From positions 96,001 through 160,000 of the forward strand of contig JBGPQV010000003.1 in the NCBI GenBank assembly GCA_041489255.1: 64,000 bases of DNA, read 5' to 3'. The translations under genes and the position numbers were made by a program. Within the stretch, counting starts at the first letter, position 1. The number at the start of each line of letters is the position of its first letter. Source of the stretch: Thermoplasmata archaeon. GTDB taxonomy: Archaea; Thermoplasmatota; Thermoplasmata; RBG-16-68-12; JAFNFQ01. Shown piece by piece: positions 8,688 to 48,041 of the stretch. The notes beneath the pieces are model-generated. The model was given only the letters and a program-made list of their open reading frames with translations. It searched no databases and had not been told where the DNA came from.

Positions 8688-8799
8688 ACCGAGAAGCTAC
8701 CGCCTTATCGCATCCGCGGTGTCCCCCTGAGTGAATTCACGACCCTATGGAGGAATCCTTAACTATCCTATGGACATACTCCAGTTAGAGTGAAAGGGA

Positions 8800-8931: not shown

Positions 8932-9081
8932 GAGATCCCTTCTGGCTTCATCGGATTGAGAAAATCCGTTGACCTCGATGATGCCTCATGGAATGTCAAG
9001 GCAGTAGCAAGTTGCTAAACGCTCCCAAGTGCTGAGTCTTCGGGCTGAAATCGAGCATGAGCGTTCCTGTCCCAATCACAT

Positions 9082-19807: not shown

Positions 19808-21269
19808 CAGATTGCGCGCGATCTTGGAGGCGCTCTCCGCGCGTGTCCAGGTGTCAATGCAGGAAGACGAGTTGTTTTACTTAATGGGCAAGAAGGTCGT
19901 CACGTTCGTTTCGAATGATGAATACAGGCGTCTCTCAGCGGGAGCATACTCACACGACACCGCAGCATCAGAGGTCCGCGAGGGAGAGCGGAATCTTGAG
20001 AGCCTCGACGCAAGCTACGCTCGATCGGCATCGCCAGACGAGAAAGAATACCTCAAAGCGCGAGCTGATGCCATGCAGAAGCTCCGCGAGGCTCAGCAGC
20101 AGATGCTGATGCTAATGCACCAAGCCACTTCGATCCACCGCTTCGTGCAGCTGAAATCGCTGGGCGGTTATGTCGCGATATCAGAGCACGGCAGGGAAGT
20201 CCTCGATGCTCTCCCCGCGCTCGCTTCCATTCAGACGGGGTCCGAACCAGCTGAGGCTGACGGCGTGCTCTATTCGCTCGAAGCGGGTGTGACTAGAGTC
20301 GGTAAAATCGCGAAGGCGATCCAGACCGCCCTCCAAAAGTGGGATACATCCTACGTGGCGACCAATTTCTCCGACACGCAATTGCTCGCGGCAGCCAGTG
20401 ATATCGCACCCTTTGGCGGCGATTACATCTCGTTTCTCAAGACGGCGCAGCAACTGGCCGAGATTCTGGCGAAAGCGAGACACGTCTCCCTCTACGCAGC
20501 AGGGCCAGAGCCTGACAAATGCCAACGCGCTTCCGTTGTGGCGACAGAAATGATGGATATCCTAGGTTCAAAGGTCCAATGGGGCAATCGCAAGTCCTCG
20601 CTTACAGCGGCTTCAATGTCATCGGAGCTGAATAGGTACTCGGGATTTGACACAATCAATGCAGTCATCGCTATTCACGCGGACATGCTTGGTGCGAAAC
20701 CTATTTCATCGCGGGACACAGACAAGCCGCGCAACCCAAGTTACCAAGATTCGTCTCTGGGCTTCCAGAGGCTTCTGTTGATGCTCCCCGTGAGCCCTGA
20801 GGTTCTCGCGCTCAGGATGCAAACCATTGTGGACCATTTAAAGAAACGCGTGCCCGACGCACCCATTGTGGAGATCTGCGATTCGGCTGCGATTCTGTGT
20901 GCCGTCAAGGAGCGATCGCCAGACGATCTCATGGCTTCCTTCGACGCAGCAGATGCGTGGCTGAAGAATGCGCTGAGCAGTCATGTCGTCGCCGCGGCAC
21001 TCGCAGCCGCGCTTCCGGGCCCTGTGGAGACCACGAAGCTTTGGACGCGTCACCTGATCTCCAAGCTTGAAGCAACGAACAAGACAGCGGGAAACGTCGA
21101 GCCTTTACACCTCTCTCTCAAAGCGCTTTGGTCCTCGGTTTTCGGTCCGAAGCGGGACATCCCCATGCTGTTCGGCATGGCGGCATACTGGATGTACCTC
21201 TACGAGGAGACGATACGGGAATTCCGCGCACATCCATTGCACGTCCACTACGTGCCGTGGTTTGGCTGA
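19788..21269 (+). CDS. Hypothetical alpha-helical protein with His-rich C-terminus
   Basis: 493-aa ORF overlapping the upstream gene; N-terminal coiled-coil tendency; ends HPLHVHYVPWFG. Confidence 0.75.
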   Translation: MHKMLTSRLRAILEALSARVQVSMQEDELFYLMGKKVVTFVSNDEYRRLSAGAYSHDTAASEVREGERNLESLDASYARSASPDEKEYLKARADAMQKLREAQQQMLMLMHQATSIHRFVQLKSLGGYVAISEHGREVLDALPALASIQTGSEPAEADGVLYSLEAGVTRVGKIAKAIQTALQKWDTSYVATNFSDTQLLAAASDIAPFGGDYISFLKTAQQLAEILAKARHVSLYAAGPEPDKCQRASVVATEMMDILGSKVQWGNRKSSLTAASMSSELNRYSGFDTINAVIAIHADMLGAKPISSRDTDKPRNPSYQDSSLGFQRLLLMLPVSPEVLALRMQTIVDHLKKRVPDAPIVEICDSAAILCAVKERSPDDLMASFDAADAWLKNALSSHVVAAALAAALPGPVETTKLWTRHLISKLEATNKTAGNVEPLHLSLKALWSSVFGPKRDIPMLFGMAAYWMYLYEETIREFRAHPLHVHYVPWFG

Positions 21270-21285
21270 GCCCGAAGAAAGATAA

Positions 21286-21360
21286 TGCTCCCGCCGGGAT
21301 TTGAACCCGAGTCGAAAGCTCGAGAGGCTTTCATGATTGACCGGACTACACTACGGGAGC
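21286..21360 (-). tRNA. tRNA-Glu (anticodon CUC)
   Basis: Reverse complement GCTCCCGTAGTGTAGTCCGGTCAATCATGAAAGCCTCTCGAGCTTTCGACTCGGGTTCAAATCCCGGCGGGAGCA; loop CT-CTC-GA. Confidence 0.95.
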
Positions 21361-21481
21361 TTTGCGTCGACTAAGTAGGAGGATATCATAAACCTTGCTC
21401 AGAGAACCGCAGCGACTCCCGAAGTTGAGAAATAGCCAAGGGAACTTCTCCTCTCCGCAGTCCGCTTGATGGCGGGAGAGA

Positions 21482-22084
21482 ATGACAGAGGCGATACTGA
21501 GAAGGCACTTTCTGAATCGCGAGAATTGGCGTGCGTGGCTCGAAGTGAATCACGCGTCCGCGAATGAGCTCTGGCTGATTCTCTACAAGAAGCACACGAA
21601 GAAATCCAGCATCCGCCTCGACGAGGCTGTCGAGGAAGCGCTGTGCTTCGGGTGGATCGACGGGAAGCTGAGGAGGATCGATGACGAGAAGCATGAGATC
21701 CGGTTCACCCCTCGGAAGATGGGCAGCACTTGGTCCGAAACCAACATCAACAGGGTCAAGAGGCTAATCAAGGAAGACCGGATGACCAGCGTGGGGCTGA
21801 AAAAGTACAGGGACGGCATGAGAGATCCGAGGATGAAGCTGCTCAGGAAGGATTTCGAGATACCTCAGTTCATCGTCGCCGCATTGAAACGGAACAAGAG
21901 GGCGTGGGACGCCTTCGACAAGCTCGCTCCCTCTCGGAAGCAACAGATCGTGTGGTGGATAGCGACCGCCAAGAGGGAGGAGACCCGCGAGAAAAGGATC
22001 AAGGAGACGATCAGGCGAAGTCTGACGGGGAAGTTCACCTGGTGGGACGACCAATACAGCAAGCCCGAGCCGTCAAAGGTCTGA
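21482..22084 (+). CDS. YdeI/OmpD-associated family protein
   Basis: WRAWLE.NH, EAVEEALCFGWIDG, RFTPRK.GS.WS.TN, AKREETREKRI. Confidence 0.9.
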   Translation: MTEAILRRHFLNRENWRAWLEVNHASANELWLILYKKHTKKSSIRLDEAVEEALCFGWIDGKLRRIDDEKHEIRFTPRKMGSTWSETNINRVKRLIKEDRMTSVGLKKYRDGMRDPRMKLLRKDFEIPQFIVAALKRNKRAWDAFDKLAPSRKQQIVWWIATAKREETREKRIKETIRRSLTGKFTWWDDQYSKPEPSKV

Positions 22085-22132
22085 ATCCGCGCATTTAATA
22101 TCCGTCGAACCGGTGTCGCCGCCGGTGTTAAC

Positions 22133-22957
22133 ATGAAGGTCCTCCTCGCTCAGCTCTCGCCCAAGGTCGGGGACAAAGAAGCCAACATCGCCATGATGGA
22201 GAAGGCGATCAGAAAAACGAAACCCGACCTCGCCGTCTTCGGTGAACTCTTCCTCACAGGGTACATGGCCCGCGACTCGTGGAGGACGCTCGCAGAGCCC
22301 GTGCCCGGACCGAGCACGCAAGCGGTCTCCGAGATAGCGCGCAAGAACTCGACCCACATCATCTTCGGGATGCCCGAGAGGGACACGAAGGCCAGACTGC
22401 TCTACAACGTGGCGGTACTCGTCACTCCAGATGGCACCGTGGAGAAGTACCGCAAGATCCACCCCGCCAACTTCGGGCCCTTCGAGGAGGGAATCTACTT
22501 CGCACGAGGGCGGGAGCCGAAGCTTGTCGAGACGGAGCTGGGCAAGATTGGCCTGATGATCTGCTTCGATTCCTTCTTCCCCGAGCTCGCGAAGGTCCTC
22601 GCTCTTCAGGGCGCCGATATCTTGGCGGTAATCTCCGCCGCGCCGAACACGAGCAAGCCGATGTTCGACAAGGTGCTGCCCGCCAGGGCGGTGGAGGACA
22701 CGTGCTTCGTGCTCTACTGCAACCTCGTCGGCACAGAACTCAACATTGTCTTCGCTGGCGGGACTCAGGCAATAGGGCCTCGCGGGGAGTACATCGGTGT
22801 CGCCAAGGACTACAAGGAGGACCTCGTGTTGGTTGATCTCGACCTCGCTGACCTGGGACCCGCCAGGCAGGCAAGGCCGACAATCAGAGACACCGACCCT
22901 CATCTGGTCGACCTCGCCCTCGGTCGCGGCGGGAAGAAGGGGCGGCGCAGGGACTAG
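22133..22957 (+). CDS. Carbon-nitrogen hydrolase (nitrilase superfamily)
   Basis: Catalytic E (FGELFLTGY), K (YRKIH), C (ICFDSFFPE). Confidence 0.92.
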   Translation: MKVLLAQLSPKVGDKEANIAMMEKAIRKTKPDLAVFGELFLTGYMARDSWRTLAEPVPGPSTQAVSEIARKNSTHIIFGMPERDTKARLLYNVAVLVTPDGTVEKYRKIHPANFGPFEEGIYFARGREPKLVETELGKIGLMICFDSFFPELAKVLALQGADILAVISAAPNTSKPMFDKVLPARAVEDTCFVLYCNLVGTELNIVFAGGTQAIGPRGEYIGVAKDYKEDLVLVDLDLADLGPARQARPTIRDTDPHLVDLALGRGGKKGRRRD

Positions 22958-25900
22958 CCGTCGTCTGGCGGTGGCGGCGGGGCCTTCCTTTCAGCTAGCT
23001 CCTGCTGTTGCTCAGATTCCTTCCTCTTCCTTCGCTTCATCAGCAGGAGAATCACCGCCATGATGATGACGATGATGATCGCGACTGCGATGAGGATGAC
23101 CGATGTGTCGGTTCCTGAGGACCGCGACAGGGTCGTGCCGTCCTCTTGGGCCGGAGCGGACTCAATCCCTCGCGAGTTCACCGCGGTCACGTTGTAGTAA
23201 TAGATAGTCCCATCCGCCAGCCCGAGACCGACATTGTCATCGAGGAAGGTCGTCACCGTGACCAGGGGGCCGTTGACCTTCGTCCTCTGACCATTAGGCT
23301 GCGTCATCCTGTAGACGTTGTAGCCCCTCAGATCTGTCAATGGCGATGAGTCCGTGTTCAGGCTCGGCGCGGCCCAGCTCAGCCTGAGGGCTCCGAAGCC
23401 CTCCGGCACGACGGTGAGACCCGCCGGCGGGTTCGGCACCCTCTCGATGATCGAGGTCGTGTAGGTTTGACTCCGGACTCCGTTCAGGCTGCCGTCGACC
23501 GCCCAGATGTAGTAGGAGATCGAACCTGCGTGCGGCTGGCCCGCCACCTCGTAAGAGTACTCATCGGCGGTCACGACAGCCATGCTCACATTCCGCCTGA
23601 CGCCGTCGACATCCGTGTAGTCCAGCTTCACTTCCTGGACGAGGATGTTGTCGGTCACATTGGCGGTGATATTGAGCGCGACGGTGACCGGCCATGTCGC
23701 CCGGGGCGTATGTTCGATCGAGGGCGGCACCGACTCGGTTGTCTGGAAGATGCCCGTGTTCGTCTCCCAGTTCCCGCTGCTGTCGACCGCGGAGACCTTG
23801 TATTGATATGCGCCGACCAGATTCACCGCGTATTCGTAGTAGAAGGTCGGGCCACCGTCCATCGACTGATTCTCCGGCGTCTGGCCCGGGGCGGTGATTT
23901 CCACCCAGACCCCGGCGAGCAGGTAGTTGTCGGTGACATCCGCCGTGATGTTCGTCGAAGAGAGAAGCGCGACCGGGCTCGGCGTGGCGGCAAGATTGAC
24001 GATCAGCGGGGGCGTGTTGTCCTCGACATCGAAGGTGCTGACCGCCACCGCCCACAGGTCGACCGAATCCTTCGCAGACACTTTGAATATGTAAGCTCCG
24101 AGCTGGTCGGGAATCGTCTCCCTGGAGTACCTCGGTCCCGCGATCATCGACCGGTTCGTCCGCGTGAGGTCCGGCGCCGTCACCTCGACCCAGACCTCCG
24201 AGAGCAGGTAGTTGTCGGATACGAGCGCCGAGAGGTTCGTCGATGCGAACACTTCCACCGGGTTCGGGACTGCCCTCAAGTCCGAGATGGATGGTCTCGT
24301 CGTGTCCTCACATGTGAATTGACCCGAGGTCGAGTTCCGGTTACCGCTGGTGTCGGATGCCCAAATCACGAACGTGTGCAGACCGAGCATCCCGCAGTTC
24401 CTCTCCAGGAAGTAGCGCATCCCGAATGGGTCATACGACATCGTGGAGTTGATGGTACCGGCAGCGGGATTCGTAACGTTGAGCCAGACTTGGCCAACGG
24501 CGACATTGTCGCGAATCACGGCTGACACATTTACGGGGAAGTAGACCTCCTGAGGATCCGGGATTGCCGTGGCTGACGTGAGCGTCGGCCTCTCGACATC
24601 CACGAATGAGGCGGTGGTGAAGGTCCAACTGTATGGCGTTGCGAGGTTGTTGCCAGGGTCGGATGCGTCTCTGGCCGATGTCGTGAAGTTCGCGGAGTAC
24701 TGGGTGCCCGACGCAAGCACGCTCGTCGGGCCGAAGGTCATTATGCTCCCTGCCCAAGACAGCGTTCCCGCCACGGGAGTCCATGTGGCAGTGTCCTTCA
24801 GCGAGAAAGCCGACTCCGCCGATGTCCTCATCATCGGCTCGGACCATGCTGCCTGGACATTCGCGCTGGTCGGAACGCCGGTCTCCCCCGAGAACGGGCT
24901 TGTGGAGGAGACTATTGGCGGTGTCGAGTCGATCTCGAGCGCGGGAGAATATCCGTACCCGGTTCCCCCAATTGTGTCGACGACGACGGCCTGCAAAACG
25001 ACCGCAGTGCTGTCTTCAAATGGGACTGTCCAAGCGTATGGCCTGGCATCGCCTGCCACGCCCTGGAGTCCAGCGATCTGATGGTCGAAGGGACCAGCTC
25101 CCGTCACTGAGTAATTGACCCAGACCTTGAGGTTCCCGATGGAATCCTCGGCGTCATACGCCGTCCAATCGATGTTGTGAATCGTCCCGCCGGTCCAGCT
25201 CTCCCCGCCTGCAGGTGCGGTGATGCCGATCGTCGGCGGCGTATTGACAATCGTGGTGAAGGACCATATATAATCAAGGATCATGGAATTGCCTGGATTG
25301 GATACGTCCCTCGCGCCGGTCCAGACCGTCGCGGTGTAGGTCGTGGAATATGAGAAATCCACATGATCAATGGTCAACGTGTCATCTGGGAAGATCCTCT
25401 GCGACCAGCTGAATATCAAGGTGCCCATATTCGGCACCAGAGTGAAGGCTGATTCAACTGAGGCGGTGTCCATTCTCTCCGAGAACTGGACAACGATAGG
25501 AGCAGTGAGAGCGACCCCCGTGCCCGTCGGTGACGCGCTCACGACGAATGGCCACGTCGAGTCTATCTGGGGGACCAAGACCGTGCTGTACCCTTTTAGT
25601 CCGTTTGCGTCGATGACGGTCGCGTTTATCCTCACATCGGTTGCGTCGATTGTCGGCACTGTCCATCCGTAGATGGTCGCGCCAGCAAGCGGTCCTGCAA
25701 TCGTGCCTGAGCTCGGCGTCGAGGTGTAGTTGAGGTAGATCCTGAGGCTACCGGGCGGAGTCGTGTCGTCGCTCATTGTCCAAGTGATCATCTGCGAAGA
25801 ACCGCCCGTCCAGTCCTGCGCGCCACTCGGGTTTGTCAGAGAAATCGAAGGTGGGTTGTTCACAGGCGGAGCCGTGCCGCTTCCGAAGCAGTAGATCCTT

Positions 25901-27282: not shown

Positions 27283-27816
27283 TCACGACCCGCTTCTCGC
27301 GTCCGCATCCGGCACCGTGCATCCCCGCCAGTATTCGCAGCAACCAGCCACCTTCGAGATGGCGGGAGTGATCAGGAACGCCATCAGCGCGAACACAGTC
27401 ACGGCGATGAACAGGAACCATGAGAACTGAAACACGAGAATCGGCGCGGCGGCGAACACCGGCGCGAGCCACGAGGGGGCGACGTAGGCCCAGATGAGCC
27501 TATACCGCTTGGGCATCAGTCTGACGTCCCCTTTCCTGAAGAGCGCTGTCGACATCGTGCTGTAGCCGCACGGGCAGACACCGCCATAGTACGGGCAGTT
27601 CACGCAGACAGTCGCCCACATCGCCACGGTGCTCGCTACGCAGTAGAAGGCGTAGATTACGGCGGCGGGCCAGCAGAACAGGGAGATCGTCGTCACCCCG
27701 ACCGCGTATGTCGCGAATGTAGCGGTGTTCCCCTGGAAGAACGCCCTCGGGAACCTGTACTCCCGTTCGATGACTGTCGCAGCAGCCTTGTCCACGACCG
27801 ATGTCGACGACTCCAT
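27283..27816 (-). CDS. Cys-rich four-TM membrane protein
   Basis: ATG at 27816, 17 nt after nifB stop; CVNCPYYGGVCPCG and GCCEYWRGC motifs flank TM pairs. Confidence 0.75.
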   Translation of the reverse strand: MESSTSVVDKAAATVIEREYRFPRAFFQGNTATFATYAVGVTTISLFCWPAAVIYAFYCVASTVAMWATVCVNCPYYGGVCPCGYSTMSTALFRKGDVRLMPKRYRLIWAYVAPSWLAPVFAAAPILVFQFSWFLFIAVTVFALMAFLITPAISKVAGCCEYWRGCTVPDADARSGS

Positions 27817-27833: not shown

Positions 27834-28673
27834 CTAGTAGAATGCGGATGAAATGTCGCAGCCAAGCAGCCCTATCGCGTCGGCCCTGCACCTAGCGCAG
27901 TGCTCGATCTGCCTTATGTGCTTCCTGCACTCATTTCTGACTGTTCGAATCTCCAGCCCGCTCGGCGCCTTCCTCTCTTCGAACTCGCTCCCCTTGACAG
28001 CCAGGAACGGGATGACATTCTGGACCAGCGCACCCGCCTCGCTCGCCCTCAGTGCAATCTTCGGAAGCTCCTCCTCGTTGATGCCTGGGATGAGCACCGA
28101 GTTGACCTTGACGATAAGACCCTCGTCGACGCACTTCGCCAACCCGTCCCATTGCTTATCGGACAATGTCTGGAATGCGTCCTGACCTGTCAGCGTCTCG
28201 CCGCTGTCCCTCACCCACGAGTAGATCTCCGCCCCGATCCGCGGCTCGAGCGCATTGATTGTCACAGTAACGTACTTGACCCCGAGGGACACGATTTCAT
28301 CGACATATTGCGGGAGGAGGAGGCCGTTCGTCGCGAGGCAGAGCGTCATGTCCGGGAACTCCCCGCCGACGAGCCTTAGCGTCTCGAATGTCTCCTTGTT
28401 CGCGAGCGGTTCGCCCGGACCCGCGATCCCAATGACGGAGAGATTTCCCAGCTTATCGCGGACGCGGCGCACCAGCGCGGCCGCCTCTTCCGCCTTGAGC
28501 AGCTTCGACGTTACCCCTGGACGCGTCTCGTTCGAGCAGTCGAAGGCCCTGTTGCAGAACCTGCATTGGATATTGCACGCGGGAGCGACAGGCAGATGCA
28601 TCCTCGCGTACTTCCAGTGAGCCTCGGCGCTGTAGCAGGGATGAACCGATATTGACTCAGGGATCGCGCTCAA
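27834..28673 (-). CDS. nifB: NifB-type radical SAM protein (stand-alone, no NifX-like domain)
   Basis: HPCYS..AH.KYARMHLPVAPACNIQCRFC, ETRPGVTS, IAGPGEPLAN, CLATNGL, KVNSVLIPGIN and C-terminal HCARCRADAIG match NifB hallmarks. Confidence 0.88.
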   Translation of the reverse strand: MSAIPESISVHPCYSAEAHWKYARMHLPVAPACNIQCRFCNRAFDCSNETRPGVTSKLLKAEEAAALVRRVRDKLGNLSVIGIAGPGEPLANKETFETLRLVGGEFPDMTLCLATNGLLLPQYVDEIVSLGVKYVTVTINALEPRIGAEIYSWVRDSGETLTGQDAFQTLSDKQWDGLAKCVDEGLIVKVNSVLIPGINEEELPKIALRASEAGALVQNVIPFLAVKGSEFEERKAPSGLEIRTVRNECRKHIRQIEHCARCRADAIGLLGCDISSAFY

Positions 28674-28676
28674 GCC

Positions 28677-30035
28677 CTACTCCACCCCCTCTCGGTTCGC
28701 TTGAATCATCTCGAGGAAGGCCTCGACTCTTATCCTGATCTGGCCGATGTCCCCGTCGCTCAGCTCGCTCCTGATCGTCAGCGCGGGGATGCCCATTCTC
28801 TTGAGCAGGTTTGTGAGCCTCGTCGCGTCGAGCGTGTGAAGGTGACATCCCTGCATCGCGTGGAAGATGACGCCCTCGACTCCGCCATTCTTCACCTCGT
28901 TGATGATGTTCTCCTCTCTCTCGACGTTCGGAGTGAAGCATGGGCAGGTCGATGGGAACAGGTAGCGGTCCGCGATCGCGTCCAGCATGGCCCTCTCGGT
29001 CCACTCGTCAACGACGACAGGGTCGTAGAGCACCCTGGTCCCTGAACAGAGTTCATCTGAGACGATGACCGCACCGACCTCCTCGACGATGTCCGGCAGC
29101 TTCCAGTTCGGCCACATGACGGGCGAGCCCGCAAGCATCACGCGGGGGGCATCCCCGTTCGCTACGTTCTTCTTCGCCAAGACCATCTTCTCCAGCTCGT
29201 CTGAAAGCCTGTTCACGTTCTCCGTCCACCGCGCGATGTCGTCGACGTATGCGAGCCAAGCAATCAGGAGGAAATGCCTGCCCCAGAGCACGTCGCCCTT
29301 CCTCCTCGTGTCCAGCAGCCTCCTCCAGGCCTTGTGCGCGCGCTGGTACTTCTCGATGGACGCCCGGAGGCTCTTCCTCGTTATCTTGTTCCCCGTGAGC
29401 ATCTCCATCCTGTTCCTGACCGTTATGATTTCCTGGATCCACTGCCTGCGGATCGACTCTCCCTGCTTGATGCGGGGAACGTTCATGGGGACTATCGCCC
29501 TGACCTCCCTGAACTCGTCGGAGATCTTCAGCTTCGCATCGCACGGCGCGGGAGCGATGATGGCGTCGCACTGGGAGAACAGCGGGAAGTCGTCTATCAT
29601 CATGCACCCCGCGCACGCCTTCACTATGGAGCACATGTTCGGGTCGCCGAGGTACGCCTCGCCCAGGCCAACTGGCGGTAAATAGCCGCATCCGAGGGCC
29701 ACCGGGAGGGCGCCCGCCGCATCGACCAGCTCGACCGGCACGAAGTTGCAGAGCGTGCCGACCACCTTCCCGCCGCCCGCCTTGAACTGGTTGATCTCCT
29801 TGACGCGCCTGTCGTGAATCCTCGCGACATCGATGAAGTAGTCCATTACGGCCGGCTTGTTCTTCAGGGAGGCGAGCTTCTGCGCCTCGTCCTCGATCTT
29901 CTTGATGCTGTTCGCGGTCATATCGGCTCCCCGGCCCGCCACGAGAGACTTGATCCTCTCTCGCGCGCCGGAGTCCGCCTGCGCCTTCGCATCGTTCTTC
30001 GCCGGCTCAATTCCCTTTCTCTTCTGTAGGCTCAC
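28677..30035 (-). CDS. 2-hydroxyacyl-CoA dehydratase (HgdB/FldB) family, double-cubane-cluster protein (DCCP) type
   Basis: GTLCNFVP, NMCSIVK, PCDAKLK, DELCSG.R, TCPCFTPN.ER, GCH and GQIRIRVEAFLEM motifs; single ~450-aa chain with Cys-rich halves. Confidence 0.82.
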   Translation of the reverse strand: MSLQKRKGIEPAKNDAKAQADSGARERIKSLVAGRGADMTANSIKKIEDEAQKLASLKNKPAVMDYFIDVARIHDRRVKEINQFKAGGGKVVGTLCNFVPVELVDAAGALPVALGCGYLPPVGLGEAYLGDPNMCSIVKACAGCMMIDDFPLFSQCDAIIAPAPCDAKLKISDEFREVRAIVPMNVPRIKQGESIRRQWIQEIITVRNRMEMLTGNKITRKSLRASIEKYQRAHKAWRRLLDTRRKGDVLWGRHFLLIAWLAYVDDIARWTENVNRLSDELEKMVLAKKNVANGDAPRVMLAGSPVMWPNWKLPDIVEEVGAVIVSDELCSGTRVLYDPVVVDEWTERAMLDAIADRYLFPSTCPCFTPNVEREENIINEVKNGGVEGVIFHAMQGCHLHTLDATRLTNLLKRMGIPALTIRSELSDGDIGQIRIRVEAFLEMIQANREGVE

Positions 30036-36032: not shown

Positions 36033-39000
36033 TCACTGTTCTTTCCTGAGCGCGTCGACCGGATGCATGCTCGCCGCCCTATTCGCCGGGATTATCGCGG
36101 CAAAGAGAGCCGTGGCGTCGACCACGATGACTATGAGGAGCATCGCCAGCCAGGGGATTGCCACGTTGTTGCTGAGGAGCGTGCCTCTGCCGAAGAAAAG
36201 GAACGATGTCAGCAGGCCCGCCACGATGCCGATGATCGCACCCAGAGACGCCGTGTAGACGCTCTCGAGCAGAAGCGAGTTCATGACCATCGACCTGCCG
36301 AATCCAATCGCCCGCAAAATGCCGATCTCCGCTTTCCTCTCCTCCACCGCCCGCGCGGAGCTCACGGCGAGACCGAAGATGCCGACAAGCAGTCCGAGCA
36401 ACAACAAAGCCTGGAACAGGCCCATATAGGACCATTCGACCGAGAGGTTGCTCCTCGCCAGGTCCTCGACAAGCGTCCCGTCCATGCCGTACGCCTGCAT
36501 CTTCGATTCGAGGTAGGAGACCATGGCGGGAGGGTCCGGCGTCTTGAACAGGAAAAGGCGGTACTCCGCTGTCGTCGGGTAGAGGCGGTTGATGTTGCCC
36601 TCGGAGATGAAGACCGATCCGGGGAATATCGAGTTCTCCGTGATCCCGACGATCACCAGCTGCACCTCATTCCCGCGTTCATCGGCTATTGTAATGTGGT
36701 CGCCCACACCCTTGCCGAGGATCCAGACGACCGTGTTCGAGTCGCCTATGGCGGGAATCGCCCCATCCGCCTCGACGGTCTCGAGCGCGTCCCACGTCGA
36801 TTGCCCGCCGCTGGCCGGAGCCTGGAATCGCAGAAGGCTGTCCAGCATGAACGATTCGTTCGCTCCAATGAGCCGTGGCGGGAGGTTCTTCTTTAAGTTC
36901 GAGCAGCTCCCGCCGATCTGACCGTAAGTCAGGAATTGAACGACCGAGGAATTGGCGGGGAAATTGACGATGCCGTTGCTCGCCCTGTCTGTCTGATTGC
37001 CAAGGTCGAACCTCACGGAGATCGAGCTCTCGCCCATGACGTCATATCCCGCCCCCTGCCTCACGACCATGTTATCGATGTTGGCCTGCTGACCCTGAAT
37101 GTTCACTGAGAGGCCGAGGTATGTGAAGATGACGATGGCGAAAAGCGAGACCGCGAGACAGGTCCTCCCGACTTTCTTGGCGGGAGTTAGAAAAGCGATT
37201 CTGAGAGTGCCGCCATTGGCGCCGGCGATGGTAAGGATTCGGGAAAGGCCTGAGGCGATTCTTCTTAGACCGACGGACAGCACCCCGATCAGGGCGGCGA
37301 TGATCGCGAATCCGCTTGCGAAGAAGAGAACGAACGGCACGGATTCGGAAGTGCTGGCAACGATGAATGAGATGACGATTGCCAGAACAATCAAAGCAAT
37401 CGACCAAGTGAGCAGCAGATATACCCGCAATCTCGGGGTCCACGCGACCCACGGCAGCGAGAAAAACATAAGTGCGGCTCCCGCCAAAAAAACGGCGGAT
37501 CCCGTTGGGAAATCTATCGGCATGAAATTGCTCCCAATCATCACGATGCCGCCGAGGAGAATAAGGGCGGGGGCAAGGGTGCGTTTACTTCTCCAACCAC
37601 CATGTTCCCGAAGGGCGGTGGCGAGCAACTGCCCCGATATCTTATGAGCTGACAGCACGAAAGCGAAGAACGAAACGAGAAAACCCGCGACGAAGCCGAC
37701 GACGACCGTGTCCGGCGTGAAATACAGTCGGACCGTGGTGCCCTCGACGATGTTGCTCCAGAACGCGTTGGTGAGAAGGATGCACAGAAAAGCGATGAGC
37801 AGGCCGACGAGGATTCCGACGGCAGAGGAAATCACGGAGACGAGGAACGCCTCGATCGCGAACGTCCTCGTCACCTGAACTCTCTTCATGCCGATTGTCT
37901 TGAGGACGCCAATCTCCCGCCTCCTGCCCTCCATGACCATGCCGACGAGCGCCACCGCCAAGATGATCCCGGAGATCATGACGACGACACCAAACGAGAG
38001 GAACGTCTCCGTGAGGAGCTGAACACCTTCGGCTGATTCGATGCCGTTCGCCTTGACAGGCAGAACGCTCAATCCGGCATCACCGCCAAGTATCGTCGCG
38101 TTGAGGCGGGAGCTGATGTCGGATCTCAATTGCGGCAGGTTCGTCCCCTTGACCTTGATCGTCGTGATGTTGCCGAGGTCGTTGACCCACAGCCCCTTGG
38201 CCTTGTCCAACGTGATGTAAGCCTTAGGAGTCCCGCCATAGAGTAGCCAATAGTCCAGGTCGGCATAGCTCATCTGGCTACGCATCTCGTCCCCGCTCAC
38301 CCATGTCGGGTCCCAGTCTACGCAGCTGGCCTTGCCTTTTATCCCAGGGAATGGCGGCATGATGTCCGGGTCCAGAGCCTTCCCCGTCAAGTCCACGACA
38401 TGCTTCACGGCGAATGTGGCGTTCCTGTAGACCTGCCTGAACGTGCTGGTGTAGACTGAATAATTCAGGCTCACGGTGTCGCCGACTCTGGCGCCGAGCC
38501 TCGCGGCGGTGTAGTTGGTGATGATGATCTCGTTGTCTTGGATGCCGCCGATGATTGGCGACTTGGTGATGTTGTCTGTGAATGCGCCGAACGCGTAGTC
38601 AGCATGAGGATTGAGCCCCGTCACCGTGGAGTAGGGAATCGAGACGGCGCCGAACGAGATGTTGTTGACGAAATACGACGTCAGCGCGGAGACATTCTCC
38701 ATCCCCGCCACGCTTCCGATCATCGCACCGACCGCATCGACGTATCGCTCGTCGAAGAAGACGTTCTCGTTCTCTATGCGCACGTAGCTGGACGCGATTA
38801 TGTTGAACCGGAGATCCCTGAAGCCCACCGCCTCGTCGATGGCGATCTGCAGTCGTGATGTCGCATCCCCACTCGTCTTCACTCCCTCGCGATCATCGCC
38901 GATGTTCGACACGACAATGGTGTTGATGTACGAAGGCGCTCCGATGGCCTGCTGGAGGTAGCTGAGATTCGCGAACACGTTCTGGGCGATTGTCCCGCCG

Positions 39001-39686
39001 CTCGAGAGGCTGAACCGGCCCATGCCGCCGTCCTTGACGACCATGAGAACCGATAGATCAATCGAGACCTGCTTGGTGAAGCTGGAGTAGATGCTCTCGA
39101 CGGAGAACTCCGGGCTCCTTGTGGTGATCCTCAGTGAGCTACCTGCGGACGCGTCGAGCGCATCCGCCAACTTCTGGTTGATTATCGCCTCACCGGGAGC
39201 AACCTCCGGCGTGAGGCTCCCGCCATCGAGAGTCTGGAAATTGCCGAAAGAATAGAACAAGCCGTTGTATCCGACGATGTTCACGCTCGACTCGACCGGC
39301 CCCGACGCTCCCTGCCTCACCGAACCCCCTAGAATCAGCAGAGGGGCAAGGCCATCGGTTGCTGCCGCCACGGAGGGATCTGCGGAGACGCTGTCGAAGA
39401 TCATCTCGTTGAACAGTCCATCGGAATGTATGACCTCGTCAACCGCCCCGAGGTTCGCATAGACCTGTTCCACGACCCCGTGCTTCATCGAATCGCCGAC
39501 CGCCAGTGAGCCCGTCACCATCGCGGAGCCGACGATCAGCCCCGCCACCGTGAGCGCGGTCAGTCGCTTCTTCTTGAGGAAGAAGCTGAGGGCGAGCTTG
39601 AGCAATGCCGGCGATCTCGCCGCCATGGCCAGGACGGCAACGACGACCGCCAAGAACACGACCAGCGAGGGAACGAGCGCGTCCAT
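36033..39686 (-). CDS. Giant FtsX/MacB-like ABC transporter permease (tandem modules)
   Basis: Two RRREIGVLKTIG / ERKAEIGILRAIG FtsX motifs, PANRAASMHPVDALR terminus, large extracellular loops. Confidence 0.88.
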   Translation of the reverse strand: MDALVPSLVVFLAVVVAVLAMAARSPALLKLALSFFLKKKRLTALTVAGLIVGSAMVTGSLAVGDSMKHGVVEQVYANLGAVDEVIHSDGLFNEMIFDSVSADPSVAAATDGLAPLLILGGSVRQGASGPVESSVNIVGYNGLFYSFGNFQTLDGGSLTPEVAPGEAIINQKLADALDASAGSSLRITTRSPEFSVESIYSSFTKQVSIDLSVLMVVKDGGMGRFSLSSGGTIAQNVFANLSYLQQAIGAPSYINTIVVSNIGDDREGVKTSGDATSRLQIAIDEAVGFRDLRFNIIASSYVRIENENVFFDERYVDAVGAMIGSVAGMENVSALTSYFVNNISFGAVSIPYSTVTGLNPHADYAFGAFTDNITKSPIIGGIQDNEIIITNYTAARLGARVGDTVSLNYSVYTSTFRQVYRNATFAVKHVVDLTGKALDPDIMPPFPGIKGKASCVDWDPTWVSGDEMRSQMSYADLDYWLLYGGTPKAYITLDKAKGLWVNDLGNITTIKVKGTNLPQLRSDISSRLNATILGGDAGLSVLPVKANGIESAEGVQLLTETFLSFGVVVMISGIILAVALVGMVMEGRRREIGVLKTIGMKRVQVTRTFAIEAFLVSVISSAVGILVGLLIAFLCILLTNAFWSNIVEGTTVRLYFTPDTVVVGFVAGFLVSFFAFVLSAHKISGQLLATALREHGGWRSKRTLAPALILLGGIVMIGSNFMPIDFPTGSAVFLAGAALMFFSLPWVAWTPRLRVYLLLTWSIALIVLAIVISFIVASTSESVPFVLFFASGFAIIAALIGVLSVGLRRIASGLSRILTIAGANGGTLRIAFLTPAKKVGRTCLAVSLFAIVIFTYLGLSVNIQGQQANIDNMVVRQGAGYDVMGESSISVRFDLGNQTDRASNGIVNFPANSSVVQFLTYGQIGGSCSNLKKNLPPRLIGANESFMLDSLLRFQAPASGGQSTWDALETVEADGAIPAIGDSNTVVWILGKGVGDHITIADERGNEVQLVIVGITENSIFPGSVFISEGNINRLYPTTAEYRLFLFKTPDPPAMVSYLESKMQAYGMDGTLVEDLARSNLSVEWSYMGLFQALLLLGLLVGIFGLAVSSARAVEERKAEIGILRAIGFGRSMVMNSLLLESVYTASLGAIIGIVAGLLTSFLFFGRGTLLSNNVAIPWLAMLLIVIVVDATALFAAIIPANRAASMHPVDALRKEQ

Positions 39687-43485: not shown

Positions 43486-46400
43486 ATGGTGACGAAGAAA
43501 GCCCGCCACTCCCCGAAGGAGTCGTACGCGGATATGGTGTTCAACAAGACGCTCGTGGAGATCGACGAGGTCGCGAAGAAGCTGGCGGACCTCGAGCAGG
43601 CGCGTCAGAACAACAAGCTGATCATGATCGCCTCGGAGGCCATGTGCCCCAAGCCAGTGCGAGAGGCGCTCTCCTCCACATACACGAACCTCTATGCCGA
43701 GGGCTACCCCCGCAGGAGGATGATGACGGAGGAGCGCAAGTCCCTGGAGGACCTCGACAGGCAGATGGTGCTCCACAGGCGCTACCAGGACAGGCGCTAT
43801 TACAAGGGATGCGACTACATCAACATGGTAGAGGCCATCGCGCAGAGGAGGGTCGCCGAGCTGTTCGCGACCGAGAAGACGCCGGCGGAACACATCTTCG
43901 CGAACGTACAGCCGCACTCAGGCGCGACAGCGAACAACGAGATCTACGAAGCCTTCCTGAAGATTGGCGACACGGTCATGGGCATGGCCCTCTCCAGCGG
44001 CGGTCACCTGACCCACGGCAGCAGGGCGAACAGGTCGGGGAAGCATTACAAGATAGTCTCCTACGACGTCGACCTCACGACGGGCAAGGTGGACTACGAG
44101 AAGGTGAGGCAGCTCGCGCTGCAGCACAAGCCTAGGATGATCATCGGCGGCTACAGCGCGCACACCTGGGATGTTGACTGGAAGAAGCTCAGGGAGATCG
44201 CTGACGAGGTCGGCGATTGCTTCGTGCACGCTGACATCTCTCACATCGCCGGGCTCATCGCCGGCGGCATGCTCTCGAACCCTATCGATTACGCGCAGAC
44301 TGTCGTGTTCACCACGCAGAAGACGCTCTGCGGCCCGAGGGGCGCGGTCATCCTGACGACCGACATCGACAGGGCAAGGAGGATCGACTCCGCGGTCTTC
44401 CCTGGCGAGCAGAGCGGGGCGCACTTCAACAACATACTAGCCAAGGCGGTCTGCTTCGAGATCGCGAAGACGGACGCCTTCAGGGCGCTGCAGAGGCAGA
44501 TAGTCAGGAACGCGCAGGCGCTGGCGAAGGAGCTGCAGAGGCTCGGGATGCACATCGCCTATGGGGGGACCGAGAACCACATCGTCCTCATAAGCCTCCG
44601 AGAGCTGAGGCAGGGAGGGTTCAACTTAACGGGCGAGGTCGCCTCGCGCATACTCGACCTGTGCGGCATCACGTGCAACAAGAACGAGATCTCAGGAGAC
44701 GAGACAGCGGTCCACCCGTCCGCCGTCAGGCTCGGGACCACCTGGATCACCCAGAAGGGGCTCAAGGAGGAGCACATGGCCCGCCTCGCGAGGATTATCC
44801 ACTCCGTGCTGACCGGCATCATCCCGTTCGACTACATCGGCACCTCGAAGGACATGGCGAGGGGCAAGGTCAGCTTCGACAGGATCGTGAAGGCGAGGAA
44901 GGGCGTGGCGGAGCTGGTCGGGGAGATGGAATCCGAGGGCGAGCCGATGGCGCTCGACTACCCGCACTTCACCGTCGCCCCGAAGATGAAGGGGAGGACG
45001 ACGCCCCTCTTCGACACCTACAAGTCCGCAGGTGCGAAGTTCGTCGAGAGGAACGGCTGGAAGGTCCCGAGGGAAGTCTCGGGGCTGAAGAGCGAATTGA
45101 AAGCATCCAAGAAGAACGCGGTCCTCATCGATTCATCGGACATTCCCGCCATCGATATCTCTGGCGAGAAGTCGACGGAATTCCTGCAGGGCATCATCAC
45201 GAAGAATGTTTACGGCCTCCGGGAGAACCAGGGGCTGCAGTCGCTGATGCTCGATCCAGACGGTGGTGTCATGGCCACGGTCGACCTGTTCAGAATGGGT
45301 GACAGCGAGCACGGTCCGAGGTATGTCCTCACGGGGCTGAACGCCCTCGGGGATGAGGTGAAGGAATGGATGTGCGCGCTCTCGGACGGCTACACCCGAC
45401 ATGACATCGACGTTTTCATGAAGATTGAGGGGCCGGTCATGATCCGCGACATGTCCGCGGGCGACGGGCTGTGGGCGGCGTTCGATGTGGCGGGAAGGGG
45501 AGCTGCGAAGGTCGTCGGACGCATCGCGGGGCGGCTGCCAGAGAGCGGCTCGCCTTGGCTGAAGCATTTCAATCATGGCGGGAACCTCGTCGAACTGATG
45601 AAGCTGAGCAAGAAAGGCCAGCCTGACAGGTTCAGGCTGTGCGGGAGTGGAGGCGTGATCGCCCGCGTCTTCCAGAAGATGCTCTCGCTAGATGGCGGGA
45701 AGGCTGCCTCGGCGGCGGGAATACTTGCGAGAGATGTGATAGGCCGTCTGCAAGGCATCCCTGATGGCGGGAAAGTGGCGGGCCACCAAGTCCTGAGGCG
45801 CAGACCAGATCTGTTCGACGTCACGAAGCCCTACTTCGTCGGCGTCGACATGCTAAAGCTCAAGGACGAGGCCAGGCCGATAATCTTCACCGAGCCAAAG
45901 CCCAAGGAAGGCGAACTCAAGAAGAGCTTCCTGCTCGACCTGCACCGGGAACTGTACCCGAGCGTCGCCATGCACCCGTTCGCCGGGTGGGAGATGCCGG
46001 TCGTCTTCGAGTCGATCCGCTCCGAGCACGCGAACGTGCGGGAGAACGCGGGCCTGTTCGACCTGTCGCACATGGGCATTTTCGAGATAACAGGGCCGTA
46101 TGCAGCCAGGTTCATCGACATCGTCGCGAGCAACTACCTGAAGTCGATGCACCCGGGCCACTCGCACTACTCATACGTCCTAGGCACCCAGGGGAGAGTC
46201 TTGGACGACATCTTCGTCTACTGCCTCGGGAAGGAGCGCTTCATCATCGTCGCCAACGCGGCCAACTCCGACAAGGTCGAGAAGTGGCTCGACTCCGTCA
46301 ACGAGGGCAAGGTCTCGCTCACCTATGGCGGGAGGAAGATCAAACTCGAAGGCAATGCGGACATCAGGAACCTCAAGACCCCGCAAGCGCAGAACAACAG

Positions 46401-47151
46401 GAAGATGCTCATCGCGCTGCAGGGCCCGAAGTCCCGCCAGATGCTCTCCCAGGTCGTCACCAAGGACCACGCGAAGTTCATGAGGATGAAGAAGTTCGAG
46501 ATCGGCGAGTTCAGCATCAAGGGGACGCCCTGCTTCCTTTCGAGGACGGGCTACACGGGCGAGGACGTCGGCTACGAGATATTCGTGCACCCGCAGAAGG
46601 CCGCCGCCATGTGGAAGCTGCTGCTGAGCCTCGGCGCGAAGCCTGCGGGTCTTGGTGCGAGGGATTCCACGAGGACAGAGGCCGGCCTGCCTCTCTGGGG
46701 CCACGAGCTCGCGGGGCCGGACGGCATCAGCCCGATAGAGGCCGGCTACGGCATGTTCGTCAAGCTGCACAAGCCGTTCTTCATAGGGCGCGACGAGATG
46801 ATGCGCCAGGCCCTCAACAGGAAGAGGGATGTGGTCAGGTTCAAGATCGACAAGAAGGGCGCGCGCATAGTCCGGAGGGGAGACGCAGTCGCGACGAATG
46901 AGGGCGAGATCATAGGCGAGGTCACCAGCAGCGTCGTCGTAGGAACGGTGCAGGTCGGACTTGCGCTGCTCTCCCGCGGTCGCGTCGCGAGCAAGGACAC
47001 GATCATCGTAGGGCTGACGCATGCCCTGAGCGAGCCGGACCGCCAGAAGTTCAAGGTCGGCGGGAAGCTGGACATCGCGATACAGAGCGAGACGGGCGCG
47101 GTGCTGCCAAGGTTCCCGCCAAGGTTGCAGCGCGGGACCGTCTGGCACTAG
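43486..47151 (+). CDS. glyA-gcvT: Fusion: serine hydroxymethyltransferase + divergent GcvT-like module + intact GcvT aminomethyltransferase
   Basis: YAEGYP, NVQPHSGA, GGHLTHG, TTQKTLCGPRG (PLP Lys); then RTTPLFD..GWKVP; then FAGWEMP, LFDLSHMG, RTGYTGED.GYE, GLGARDSTRTEAG. Confidence 0.92.
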   Translation: MVTKKARHSPKESYADMVFNKTLVEIDEVAKKLADLEQARQNNKLIMIASEAMCPKPVREALSSTYTNLYAEGYPRRRMMTEERKSLEDLDRQMVLHRRYQDRRYYKGCDYINMVEAIAQRRVAELFATEKTPAEHIFANVQPHSGATANNEIYEAFLKIGDTVMGMALSSGGHLTHGSRANRSGKHYKIVSYDVDLTTGKVDYEKVRQLALQHKPRMIIGGYSAHTWDVDWKKLREIADEVGDCFVHADISHIAGLIAGGMLSNPIDYAQTVVFTTQKTLCGPRGAVILTTDIDRARRIDSAVFPGEQSGAHFNNILAKAVCFEIAKTDAFRALQRQIVRNAQALAKELQRLGMHIAYGGTENHIVLISLRELRQGGFNLTGEVASRILDLCGITCNKNEISGDETAVHPSAVRLGTTWITQKGLKEEHMARLARIIHSVLTGIIPFDYIGTSKDMARGKVSFDRIVKARKGVAELVGEMESEGEPMALDYPHFTVAPKMKGRTTPLFDTYKSAGAKFVERNGWKVPREVSGLKSELKASKKNAVLIDSSDIPAIDISGEKSTEFLQGIITKNVYGLRENQGLQSLMLDPDGGVMATVDLFRMGDSEHGPRYVLTGLNALGDEVKEWMCALSDGYTRHDIDVFMKIEGPVMIRDMSAGDGLWAAFDVAGRGAAKVVGRIAGRLPESGSPWLKHFNHGGNLVELMKLSKKGQPDRFRLCGSGGVIARVFQKMLSLDGGKAASAAGILARDVIGRLQGIPDGGKVAGHQVLRRRPDLFDVTKPYFVGVDMLKLKDEARPIIFTEPKPKEGELKKSFLLDLHRELYPSVAMHPFAGWEMPVVFESIRSEHANVRENAGLFDLSHMGIFEITGPYAARFIDIVASNYLKSMHPGHSHYSYVLGTQGRVLDDIFVYCLGKERFIIVANAANSDKVEKWLDSVNEGKVSLTYGGRKIKLEGNADIRNLKTPQAQNNRKMLIALQGPKSRQMLSQVVTKDHAKFMRMKKFEIGEFSIKGTPCFLSRTGYTGEDVGYEIFVHPQKAAAMWKLLLSLGAKPAGLGARDSTRTEAGLPLWGHELAGPDGISPIEAGYGMFVKLHKPFFIGRDEMMRQALNRKRDVVRFKIDKKGARIVRRGDAVATNEGEIIGEVTSSVVVGTVQVGLALLSRGRVASKDTIIVGLTHALSEPDRQKFKVGGKLDIAIQSETGAVLPRFPPRLQRGTVWH

Positions 47152-47294
47152 AGCCGCAATCACCGCCAACCGTGGTCACGTCCGCGGTCAAGCCTTGAGG
47201 ATACTTGCCAAATCCTTAAGATTCCGACCCGCTGTCTTCGCGACCGACAAGACCCAGCGCAGCCGCAACGCAGTTTGGAAGCTAGGTGTCAATC

Positions 47295-48041
47295 ATGGCG
47301 GGAGATTCGGGCAAGCACCACGGCGCATCCGACCTTGTTCTTCTCGTCGAGGAGAACGCGAAGGCGCTCATGCCCGAAGTTGATCTTCAAATCCTCACGA
47401 TCGAGCCGGCTGATGGCGGTGGCCCTGACACGATGAGGGTCCATCCCGCCACCGTGGACAAGGCGCTGTGCGCGCACTGCCTCGCGTGCATCAAGCTTTG
47501 CCCGTCCCTCACCTGGGACATGGAGAAGGCGCGGGTGATTGTGAACGAGGTCTCGTGCAAGGGATGCGGGATATGCGGCTCGGTCTGCCCGACCGGAGCT
47601 ATATCCCAGAGGCAGTTCAGCCCCGGCATGGTCCTCGATGCTCTGGGGAGAATCTGGGATGGAGAGGGAAACGGAGAGGAAATCACCAGCTGCGGCTCCT
47701 GCCCCGTCGAGCCTCTAGGAGCGAGGATGGCGAAGAAGGTCGAAATCAATGGTCTCCCGGTCAGGCTTCTCTGCTCCGGACGCGCCGAGCCGATACAGGT
47801 CCTCGAGAGCCTTCAGCTCGGAGTCCACGGCATCCTCATGGTCGACTGCTTCAGCAACGTGAAGCAGAAGGAGCGGTTCGAGAAGGGGAGGAAGCGCCTC
47901 GAGAGCGGTCAGAAGCTCCTCAGGACGCTCGGCTCGGGGAGCGTGCAGATCGAGGCGGCGAACATCTCCTCGGACAACATCAACGAACTTGGTCGCGCTT
48001 TGAGCAAGTTCTCCGGTCATCGCGGCGGTGATAAAGTATGA
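47295..48041 (+). CDS. 2x[4Fe-4S] ferredoxin fused to a degenerate MvhD/FlpD-like domain
   Basis: CAHCLACIKLCP, CKGCGICGSVCP; VRLLCSGR..P....GVHGILMVDC. Confidence 0.75.
   Translation: MAGDSGKHHGASDLVLLVEENAKALMPEVDLQILTIEPADGGGPDTMRVHPATVDKALCAHCLACIKLCPSLTWDMEKARVIVNEVSCKGCGICGSVCPTGAISQRQFSPGMVLDALGRIWDGEGNGEEITSCGSCPVEPLGARMAKKVEINGLPVRLLCSGRAEPIQVLESLQLGVHGILMVDCFSNVKQKERFEKGRKRLESGQKLLRTLGSGSVQIEAANISSDNINELGRALSKFSGHRGGDKV

Follow-up and report, generated by a model that had tools for sequence, protein, structure and literature searches.

An orphan nifB coupled to a gene for a double-cubane cluster-type protein in Thermoplasmata

The chemistry of NifB, in which two [4Fe-4S] clusters are fused around a carbide derived from S-adenosylmethionine (SAM), was tied to nitrogenase until 2025, when a role in activating methyl-coenzyme M reductase (MCR) was added. 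What does this enzyme do in an archaeon whose genome matches neither system? We asked this question of a 64,000-nt stretch of DNA (positions 96,001 to 160,000 of contig JBGPQV010000003.1; hereafter, the window), in which a nifB gene lies directly behind a gene for a protein of the double-cubane cluster protein (DCCP) type. The window is part of contig C3 of a Thermoplasmata metagenome-assembled genome (MAG), G000, which comprises 2.74 Mb in 41 contigs and is 96.47% complete; its DCCP and NifB are referred to below as P0001 and P0002. Gene neighborhoods were compared among Thermoplasmatota genomes and, for one further protein family (P0003), among metagenome loci. A scan of genome contigs with two very specific peptide patterns returned 7 loci and is uninformative on other phyla.

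The reading that we favor, with a probability of roughly 0.4, is that NifB has been recruited into an older electron-transfer module containing DCCP and a NapH-like protein and serves that module, with DCCP as its most likely client. That NifB and the module are functionally tied in one way or another has, over all readings, slightly better than even odds in our judgment.

NifB, its neighbor, and the search for acceptors

The original prediction recognized NifB by six motifs, and all of these can be read in the translation: HPC (residues 11-13), CNIQCRFC (33-40), ETRP, AGPG, TVTIN, and CARCRADA. The protein also scores above the curated cut-off of the TIGR01290 nifB model (361.2 bits versus 343.65), with a match to profile positions 4-284 of 441, and its closest solved structures, 6y1x (3e-82) and 7bi7 (1e-72), are both NifB. 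In an alignment of 18 NifB sequences, H11-P12-C13, C33/C37/C40, C112, and C259/C262 are invariant; H26, C46, and C249 are also present in the window protein, C46 being non-invariant among the 18, and the conserved Cys and His positions align with those of 6y1x and 7bi7. The further [4Fe-4S] clusters of NifB are reported to be held by two Cys and one His each (bioRxiv 10.1101/2023.10.20.563283). The chain ends at residue 279 without a NifX-like C-terminal domain, and PF02579 (NifX) has 0 matches anywhere in G000, in which nifB is a single-copy gene. Such a domain is dispensable for membership in the family, as the solved archaeal NifBs matched here have 288-309 residues, and core-only archaeal NifBs have been reported to make NifB-co (bioRxiv 10.1101/2023.10.20.563283). 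The NifB core of the window protein is complete, and the protein is predicted to synthesize NifB-co.

We also noted that the NifB open reading frames (ORFs) of methanogen families in the same class (loci L043-L072) are mostly 403-425 aa long and that most match TIGR01290 only to about position 285-290 of 441. From ORF length and matched span, these proteins carry a C-terminal extension that lies outside the NifX part of the model, and the window NifB is without this extension.

The acceptors of the NifB product that are named in the available part of a 2025 report are Nif-family proteins and the McrC and Mmp7 components of the MCR activation complex (PMC12176620). A profile search of the whole G000 genome returned 0 matches to PF00148 (NifD/K/E/N/CfbD, Nif/Mar-type), PF00142 (NifH), MCR_alpha, MCR_C (McrC), and TIGR03274 (Mmp7). 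In the same order, neither PF00148 nor MCR alpha was found in any of 41 genomes, of which 21 reach a completeness of 90% or more; both searches were positive in control genomes. The absence of nifH, nifD, nifK, nifE, and nifN that had been noted for the 64 kb thus holds for the entire genome and, since no known acceptor family was found there, the window NifB is an orphan.

In these features, the protein resembles the NifB of Methanothermobacter (7bi7), a core-only radical-SAM enzyme from a host without nitrogenase. Methanogens provide a precedent for use of the NifB product outside the Nif family, as L-cluster-like [8Fe-9S-C] clusters are reported in McrC and Mmp7 (PMC12176620), and NifB is reported to be essential in these organisms (bioRxiv 10.1101/2023.10.20.563283). 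G000 differs from them in having no match to MCR alpha, McrC, or Mmp7 and in having a DCCP gene, not mmp genes, next to nifB. A second parallel is the methylthio-alkane reductase system MarBHDK, in which the NifB-like MarB serves a nitrogenase-like reductase that does not fix nitrogen; there, however, the enzyme served is a member of the Nif D/K family, for which no match was obtained here.

The protein encoded upstream of nifB, P0001, matches Pfam HGD-D with 291 bits and scores 297.1 bits on the NCBIfam model NF040772 'double_cubane', and because this is under the cut-off of 350, we name it DCCP-type and not an equivalog of the characterized enzyme. Its best solved relatives are the Carboxydothermus hydrogenoformans DCCP entries 7yyl and 6eno (E ~1e-66 over nearly the whole length, 34% identity). 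The published motif that defines DCCPs ('cluster IV', Jeoung et al. 2020) is CX19CX18-19CX29CX166-170CX32-34CX32C (PMC7317905), and P0001 carries it as C96-x19-C116-x18-C135-x29-C165-x164-C330-x33-C364-x32-C397, with a long spacer of 164 residues that is two below the published 166-170. An AlphaFold2 model built from a 28-row alignment (predicted local distance difference test score of 87.1) has 6eno as its best Foldseek match, with template-modeling (TM) scores of 0.86/0.92 and E of 3e-29, and the likeness of the predicted fold includes the N-terminal helices. By analogy with the family, P0001 would bind an [8Fe-9S] double cubane and would reduce acetylene and other small molecules in an ATP-dependent manner.

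The next Foldseek matches of the model were hydroxyacyl-CoA dehydratase and Bzd/Mbd subunits (TM 0.63-0.75). The class I benzoyl-CoA reductases (BCRs) BzdNOPQ and MbdONPQ and the dehydratase HadBC share the HGD-D fold (8s02_B, 9g87_B, and 3o3m; TM 0.70-0.75) and are likewise ATPase-driven systems for low-potential electron transfer, but they are hetero-oligomers that act on CoA esters, in contrast to the single-chain, 7-Cys window protein. For the enzymatic Birch reduction by class I BCR, an [8Fe-9S] cluster is named in the title of one paper (PMC11971306). P0001 is the sole 7-Cys protein among the four HGD-D proteins of G000, the Bcr-like genes of which form a separate four-gene cluster on contig C10.

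Conservation of the coupling and distribution of the two genes

The DCCP gene ends in a TAG stop codon that is followed by GGC and then by the TTG start codon of nifB, with the stretch GGAGGGGGTGGAG just before this start. The 3-nt gap was part of the original prediction, and we confirmed it together with the coordinates and strand of both genes. DNA nearly identical to the window is present in several sediment metagenomes; contigs from two of four other sediment-metagenome runs cross the junction with 0 differences (X2 record 1 and X4 record 11), and in the remaining two runs, contigs stop within 31 nt of it. The junction is no single-sample assembly artefact.

The adjacency is also kept elsewhere in the order, in two families. 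The distance from the stop codon of the DCCP gene to the earliest possible start codon of nifB is -4 to +4 nt in 7/7 genomes of f1 and f3 that have both genes on one contig. Two of these genomes belong to f1, the family that includes the window genome and its sister species, and five belong to f3, which, like f2, is a further family of the same order. In all seven, the gene order is DCCP-nifB-B, where B encodes a Cys-rich membrane protein, with DCCPs that are 59-96% identical and NifBs that are 62-85% identical; in a sixth f3 genome, both DCCP and nifB are cut by contig ends. This adjacency is more than chance. Among the 41 genomes of the order, NifB occurs in 13, a P0001-type DCCP occurs in 13, both occur in 12, and neither occurs in 27; the two discordant genomes, with one gene and not the other, are 78% and 86% complete. 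In DCCPs of all three families of the order, and in no other compared lineage, the seventh, non-ligand Cys (residue 116) is shifted by one residue (G/S-C versus C-S).

We then extended the comparison to 401 Thermoplasmatota genomes, with thresholds of E <= 1e-40 for NifB and E <= 1e-60 for P0001-like DCCPs. Of the 71 genomes with NifB, 62 belong to methanogen families within the class of the window genome, and these families are NifB positive throughout (f8, 48/48; f14, 6/6; f15, 5/5; f16, 2/2; f17, 1/1), and MCR alpha was found in 5/5 methanogen genomes tested, one per family. A P0001-like DCCP was present in 37 genomes, 7 of which have both genes. Eight NifB-positive genomes lie outside the class of the window genome. 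One of these, G049, has a nifDK-like pair, and the other seven have neither PF00148 above the cut-off nor MCR alpha; a P0001-like DCCP is present in six of these seven. When G000 is included, 7 of the 8 NifB-positive genomes that are outside the methanogen families and have no nif or MCR match carry a P0001-like DCCP, compared to 30 of 330 NifB-less genomes. As a separate observation, the two PF00148 genes of G049 (394 and 359 bits; G049:C112:23020-28967) lie a few kilobases from its NifB gene, with no MCR alpha, and form a nif-like or Mar-like cluster.

The DCCP gene has a recurrent setting in the phylum. When the best DCCP locus was taken from each of the 36 further genomes with the cluster, a NapH-like gene was directly upstream in 30, and a gene for a BadF/G 'archerase' ATPase lay no more than about 1.2 kb away in 31, in most cases immediately after the DCCP gene; the ATPase is absent from the stretch fetched in three (G230, G134, and G044), and two loci are cut by contig ends. 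On the basis of this survey, we take the ancestral module to consist of propellers, a NapH-like protein, DCCP, and the ATPase. The ATPase that follows the DCCP gene in these other Thermoplasmatota clusters recalls the DCCP-R of C. hydrogenoformans. In the order of the window genome, however, no ATPase gene is found inside the cluster loci of f1, f2, or f3, and its slot is occupied by nifB and B (f1 and f3) or by nothing (f2). The window DCCP further differs from the C. hydrogenoformans protein in being embedded with a NapH-like protein and surface propellers and followed by NifB. The propeller/NapH-like/DCCP/BadF-G module as such was seen in 37/401 genomes, including 21/24 of family f32 (loci L081-L092 and L173-L198). 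The proposal that ATPase-less clusters always occur with NifB was dropped: the loci concerned are those of this order, G230, and G134 (NifB positive) and G044 (NifB negative), giving a Fisher test of 3/1 versus 4/27 (p = 0.019), but a second DCCP copy in G134 has an ATPase, and the lineages are not independent.

The original prediction had also stated that the 64 kb contain no activator ATPase. No BadF/HgdC-type ATPase was found in the 64-kb window or on contig C3, but three BadF/G ATPases are encoded elsewhere in G000: contig C10 has two, next to a pair of HGD-D genes, and contig C5 has one, next to a single HGD-D gene. All three share only 32% identity with the cluster-type ATPase. The C10 locus (19908-23890) is a four-gene Bcr/Bzd-like set of two HGD-D and two BadF/G genes, and that on C5 (106143-108015) is an HGD-D and BadF/G pair; neither includes the 7-Cys motif. 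G027, a single-contig f2 genome with both DCCP and NifB, has no BadF/G match at E <= 1e-10, and its DCCP may be without any archerase partner.

NifB genes also occur in or near clusters of this kind in other lineages. In G056, which belongs to another class, the gene order is unk229 (a small polytopic membrane protein), NapH-like, DCCP, BadF/G ATPase, Kelch propeller, B, NifB-like, and a giant ORF. The NifB gene of G134 is preceded by a PQQ propeller gene and a 1333-aa ORF. G099 (locus L080, contig C32, 2273-4904) has a redoxin gene, then a homologue of unk229 (29% identical), and then a NifB-NifX gene; in its own DCCP cluster, no match to unk229 was found between the NapH-like and FG-GAP genes. 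In a quick unrooted NifB tree, f1 and f3 form one clade (support 99), f2 forms another (100), and the methanogens form a group (84), with the clades of the order and the methanogen group in an unresolved polytomy. A divergent clade of its own (94) unites the NifB-like proteins of G056, G134, G206, and G230, which score under the TIGR01290 cut-off and some of which lack equivalents of C46 or C249. Given this clade, two NifB lineages occur in or near the same module.

A different pairing was seen in G190 (locus L078, contig C1), where a gene for a 421-aa NifB-NifX fusion (8045-9310) is followed after 126 nt by one for a 337-aa HGD-D protein, P0003 (9436-10449); this genome has no PF00148 or MCR alpha match. 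P0003 is a short HGD-D protein with three invariant Cys, and its family, with 356 matches, is widespread and mostly bacterial. Among metagenome loci of this family (the best 80 of 521 confirmed), a BadF/G gene is beside the P0003-family gene in about 27, and NifB is in the fetched flanks of 0/80, which rules out the G190 adjacency as a general rule.

The ten-gene cluster around the pair

The two-gene view of the original prediction holds for the coupling of nifB to DCCP, which is conserved, but not for the extent of the system, as the DCCP gene is one of a run of ten genes on the (-) strand (Table 1). Between the PQQ-propeller gene and B, neighboring genes are separated by -4 to 17 nt. The whole gene order is preserved in the sister species and, at 54-67% identity, in f3.

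Table 1. Genes of the cluster, listed in their order on the (-) strand, with window coordinates.
Feature	Coordinates	Strand	Evidence and remarks
FtsX/MacB-type duplicated permease, 1217 aa, first cluster gene	36033..39686	(-)	Pfam FtsX 98 bits, MacB_PCD; many hydrophobic segments
PQQ/BamB-like beta-propeller, 550 aa	34237..35889	(-)	Pfam PQQ_2 141 bits, Beta-prop_ACSF4
WD40 beta-propeller, 411 aa	33005..34240	(-)	Pfam WD40 152.9 bits; hydrophobic segments 7-25, 372-403
FG-GAP beta-propeller, 440 aa	31676..32998	(-)	Pfam FG-GAP_3 91.5 bits; hydrophobic segments 1-30, 402-429
unk229, polytopic membrane protein, 229 aa, His-rich loop	30990..31679	(-)	several hydrophobic segments, three Cys
NapH/MauN-like membrane polyferredoxin, 311 aa	30048..30983	(-)	Pfam Fer4_5 54.5 bits and dicluster domains
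P0001, long-form 7-Cys double-cubane cluster protein, DCCP-type HGD-D family, 452 aa	28677..30035	(-)	Pfam, motif, fold
P0002, NifB, radical-SAM core only, 279 aa	27834..28673	(-)	TIGR01290, solved-structure matches, conserved Cys/His
B, Cys-rich membrane protein, 177 aa from ATG at 27816	27283..27816	(-)	17 nt past nifB; conserved Cys motifs
A, giant anchored surface protein, 1395 aa	22954..27141	(-)	Pfam PQQ-like propeller, Big_5, fn3; signal-like and C-terminal hydrophobic segments

The NapH-like protein has two CxxxCP motifs, two 4Fe-4S ferredoxin motifs, and hydrophobic segments, and it is 98% identical in the sister species. Proteins of the NapH, NosH, NosR, and MauN type connect electron donors, either cytoplasmic ones or quinols, with enzymes beyond the membrane. 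The window protein shares with them the Fer4_5 domain and the CxxxCP and 4Fe-4S motifs, but its score on the TIGR02163 napH model is 82.7 bits versus a cut-off of 213, it has no Nap, Nos, or Mau partner genes, and it is paired with DCCP instead. Its neighbor unk229, which is 97% identical in the sister species, has no Pfam or NCBIfam match; it is probably DsbD_2/CcdA/UreH-like, as suggested by feature matches to DsbD_2 clusters in the ESM Atlas (0.93), which we treat as a lead only.

All three propellers combine a signal-like N terminus with a C-terminal hydrophobic anchor; in the PQQ propeller, these are segments 3-27 and 512-546. The PQQ propeller is syntenic in f1, f2, f3, and other classes. 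The WD40 gene, which overlaps the upstream gene by 4 nt, is syntenic in most clusters, and the FG-GAP gene, 6 nt from its upstream gene, is also syntenic. The permease scores under the cut-off of every NCBIfam ADOP/LolCE/MacB-like model and is syntenic in f2, G076, G093, and G099. At the other end of the cluster, A is syntenic in f1, f2, and f3, and an A-like giant ORF follows nifB in G056.

B matches no named family in Pfam or NCBIfam. It has a conserved CxxC-x6-CxC motif and further conserved Cys motifs at its C terminus, and it is 72% identical between the two species of the genus. B was considered as a marker of NifB and ruled out, as its family is present in 53/401 genomes of the phylum, mostly without NifB.

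Outside the cluster, a 1221-aa ORF on the (+) strand (43486-47151) encodes an unusual fusion of a serine hydroxymethyltransferase domain with a GcvT aminomethyltransferase domain. Genes for redox partners follow on the same strand: an MvhD/FlpD-like ferredoxin gene (47286-48041) and a gene with an HdrD-like CCG domain (48038-49189).

Candidate clients of NifB

In the scheme that we favor, the archerase ATPase of the ancestral module would drive low-potential electrons into the 8Fe cluster of DCCP, and the NapH-like protein would relay these, in either direction, between DCCP and the membrane and cell surface. In the order studied here, NifB would fuse two [4Fe-4S] clusters into an 8Fe cluster and hand this to DCCP; what is delivered could be NifB-co ([8Fe-9S-C]) itself or another fused cluster akin to it. 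Such a cluster may change or replace the need for the ATPase, giving a variant of the module without an ATPase of its own. This electron path is a proposal drawn from the gene content. A more specific version, in which the DCCP of this order holds a NifB-made carbide cluster, [8Fe-9S-C], instead of the sulfide-bridged double cubane, with ATPase-free electron transfer to the NapH-like protein and the surface, we regard as unlikely.

The suggestion in the original prediction that NifB may mature an 8-Fe, possibly carbide-containing, cofactor for a non-nitrogenase enzyme is strengthened by the orphan status of NifB, by the conserved coupling, and by the NifB-like gene within the cluster of another class. 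Several observations weigh against it and against our own scheme. First, DCCP is found without NifB in 30 of the 37 DCCP-bearing genomes of the phylum, and the NifB-less clusters include full clusters with orthologues that are 47-49% identical to P0001. In f2, the cluster is intact but lacks nifB and B, and nifB is located elsewhere; in G027, it lies 165 kb from the cluster among hydantoinase, V4R, and deaminase genes. Second, an alignment of Cys ligands, which the original prediction had proposed as a check, gave no cofactor signature: all 23 DCCP orthologues, with or without NifB, retain the six ligand-type Cys as well as C366, and no Cys pattern that tracks the presence of NifB was found among the 23 compared. 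Third, NifB is 85% identical between the two species of the genus, compared to 96-98% for DCCP, the NapH-like protein, and unk229. Fourth, NifB was missing from the P0003-family loci described above, and no NifB-HGD-D fusion was found, in that, of 1811 NifB relatives with a length of 490-2000 aa, none of the best 120 carries PF06050; these 120 are NifB-NifX proteins and NifBs fused to PF00148 domains, and this null result is weak evidence. To our knowledge, E. coli has no NifB. As the C. hydrogenoformans DCCP has been overproduced in that host (PMC7317905), a double cubane presumably forms there without NifB. In addition, the L-cluster is reported to require few protein ligands (PMC12176620) and is therefore a poor fit with the six conserved Cys of DCCP. 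Finally, the co-occurrence counts overstate the case for a NifB-DCCP tie, because related genomes are not independent.

In the main rival reading, NifB would serve an unrecognized client outside the cluster or be a holdover from a methanogen ancestor with a general role, its position reflecting operon hitch-hiking or shared regulation. This reading would fit the isolated f2 nifB gene, the many DCCP clusters that work without NifB, the weaker constraint on NifB than on the cluster core, and the presence of NifB in all sampled methanogen families of the class, with MCR alpha in each genome tested, as well as the polytomy of the NifB clades with the methanogen group, which makes vertical inheritance possible. 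However, the tight coupling is kept across two families, a NifB-like gene of a different clade is part of the same cluster in another class, NifB and DCCP are kept or lost jointly in 39 of the 41 genomes of the order, and no candidate client family was found, so that we consider this explanation rather unlikely, although it deserves to be taken seriously.

We think it distinctly unlikely that NifB belongs to the module but has B or the NapH-like polyferredoxin, and not DCCP, as its client. The conserved Cys motifs of B and its position next to nifB in f1, f3, and G056, that is, in every in-cluster case and despite differing gene orders, argue for B, and in G099 the neighbor of NifB is the unk229 homologue, not DCCP. 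In contrast, B occurs in most of its genomes without NifB, f2 has no B homologue near NifB or DCCP, neither B nor the NapH-like protein has a known 8Fe site, and it is the DCCP gene to which nifB is joined by start-stop coupling.

It is less probable still that the enzyme no longer makes NifB-co and has taken on another radical-SAM task, such as modifying or repairing the double cubane of DCCP in place. The core-only architecture, the lack of NifX in the genome, and the divergent clade of G056, G134, G206, and G230, with its low scores and missing Cys equivalents, would fit such a change of function, but the window protein is above the cut-off and keeps every conserved Cys and His column, and a core-only form is no obstacle to NifB-co synthesis in the reported archaeal enzymes (bioRxiv 10.1101/2023.10.20.563283). 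The suggestion that a canonical client, nitrogenase-like or for MCR activation, is encoded in the unassembled 3.5% of this 41-contig MAG is hardly credible given the 0/41 results for PF00148 and MCR alpha across the order.

Both NifB and DCCP are known proteins, and use of NifB apart from nitrogenase is known in methanogens. The notion of a new client for NifB, as originally predicted, is therefore no longer without precedent, as the McrC/Mmp7 clusters were reported in 2025 (PMC12176620), but that complex was not found in G000. Our literature searches found no paper that links NifB with DCCP or HGD-D proteins, although NifB trees in the supplements of two studies might list non-methanogenic Thermoplasmata (PMC12176620; bioRxiv 10.1101/2023.10.20.563283). 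The terms 'double-cubane' and 'HgdB' are absent from a 2026 Chem Rev review (PMC13474568), and the available part of a 2025 paper keeps double-cubane and nitrogenase-type clusters as two separate families (PMC12491067). No description of the propeller/NapH-like/DCCP/ATPase module was found in the papers searched, and the Thermoplasmatota module appears to be undescribed.

An intact NifB is retained, without a match to nitrogenase or MCR activation, in the organism studied here and in no fewer than three related families, and in this organism nifB is coupled to a gene of the family whose hallmark is the one 8Fe-9S cluster known in biology besides that of NifB chemistry. Delivery of a cluster from NifB to DCCP, if it occurs, would connect both known families of large Fe-S clusters, provide a small two-gene system in which to study carbide insertion outside nitrogenase, and bear on the spread of L-type clusters before nitrogenase arose. 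If DCCP were to carry [8Fe-9S-C], it would join the Nif family and McrC/Mmp7 as the third class of L-cluster proteins. Even without DCCP as the client, these genomes indicate that NifB has some further client.

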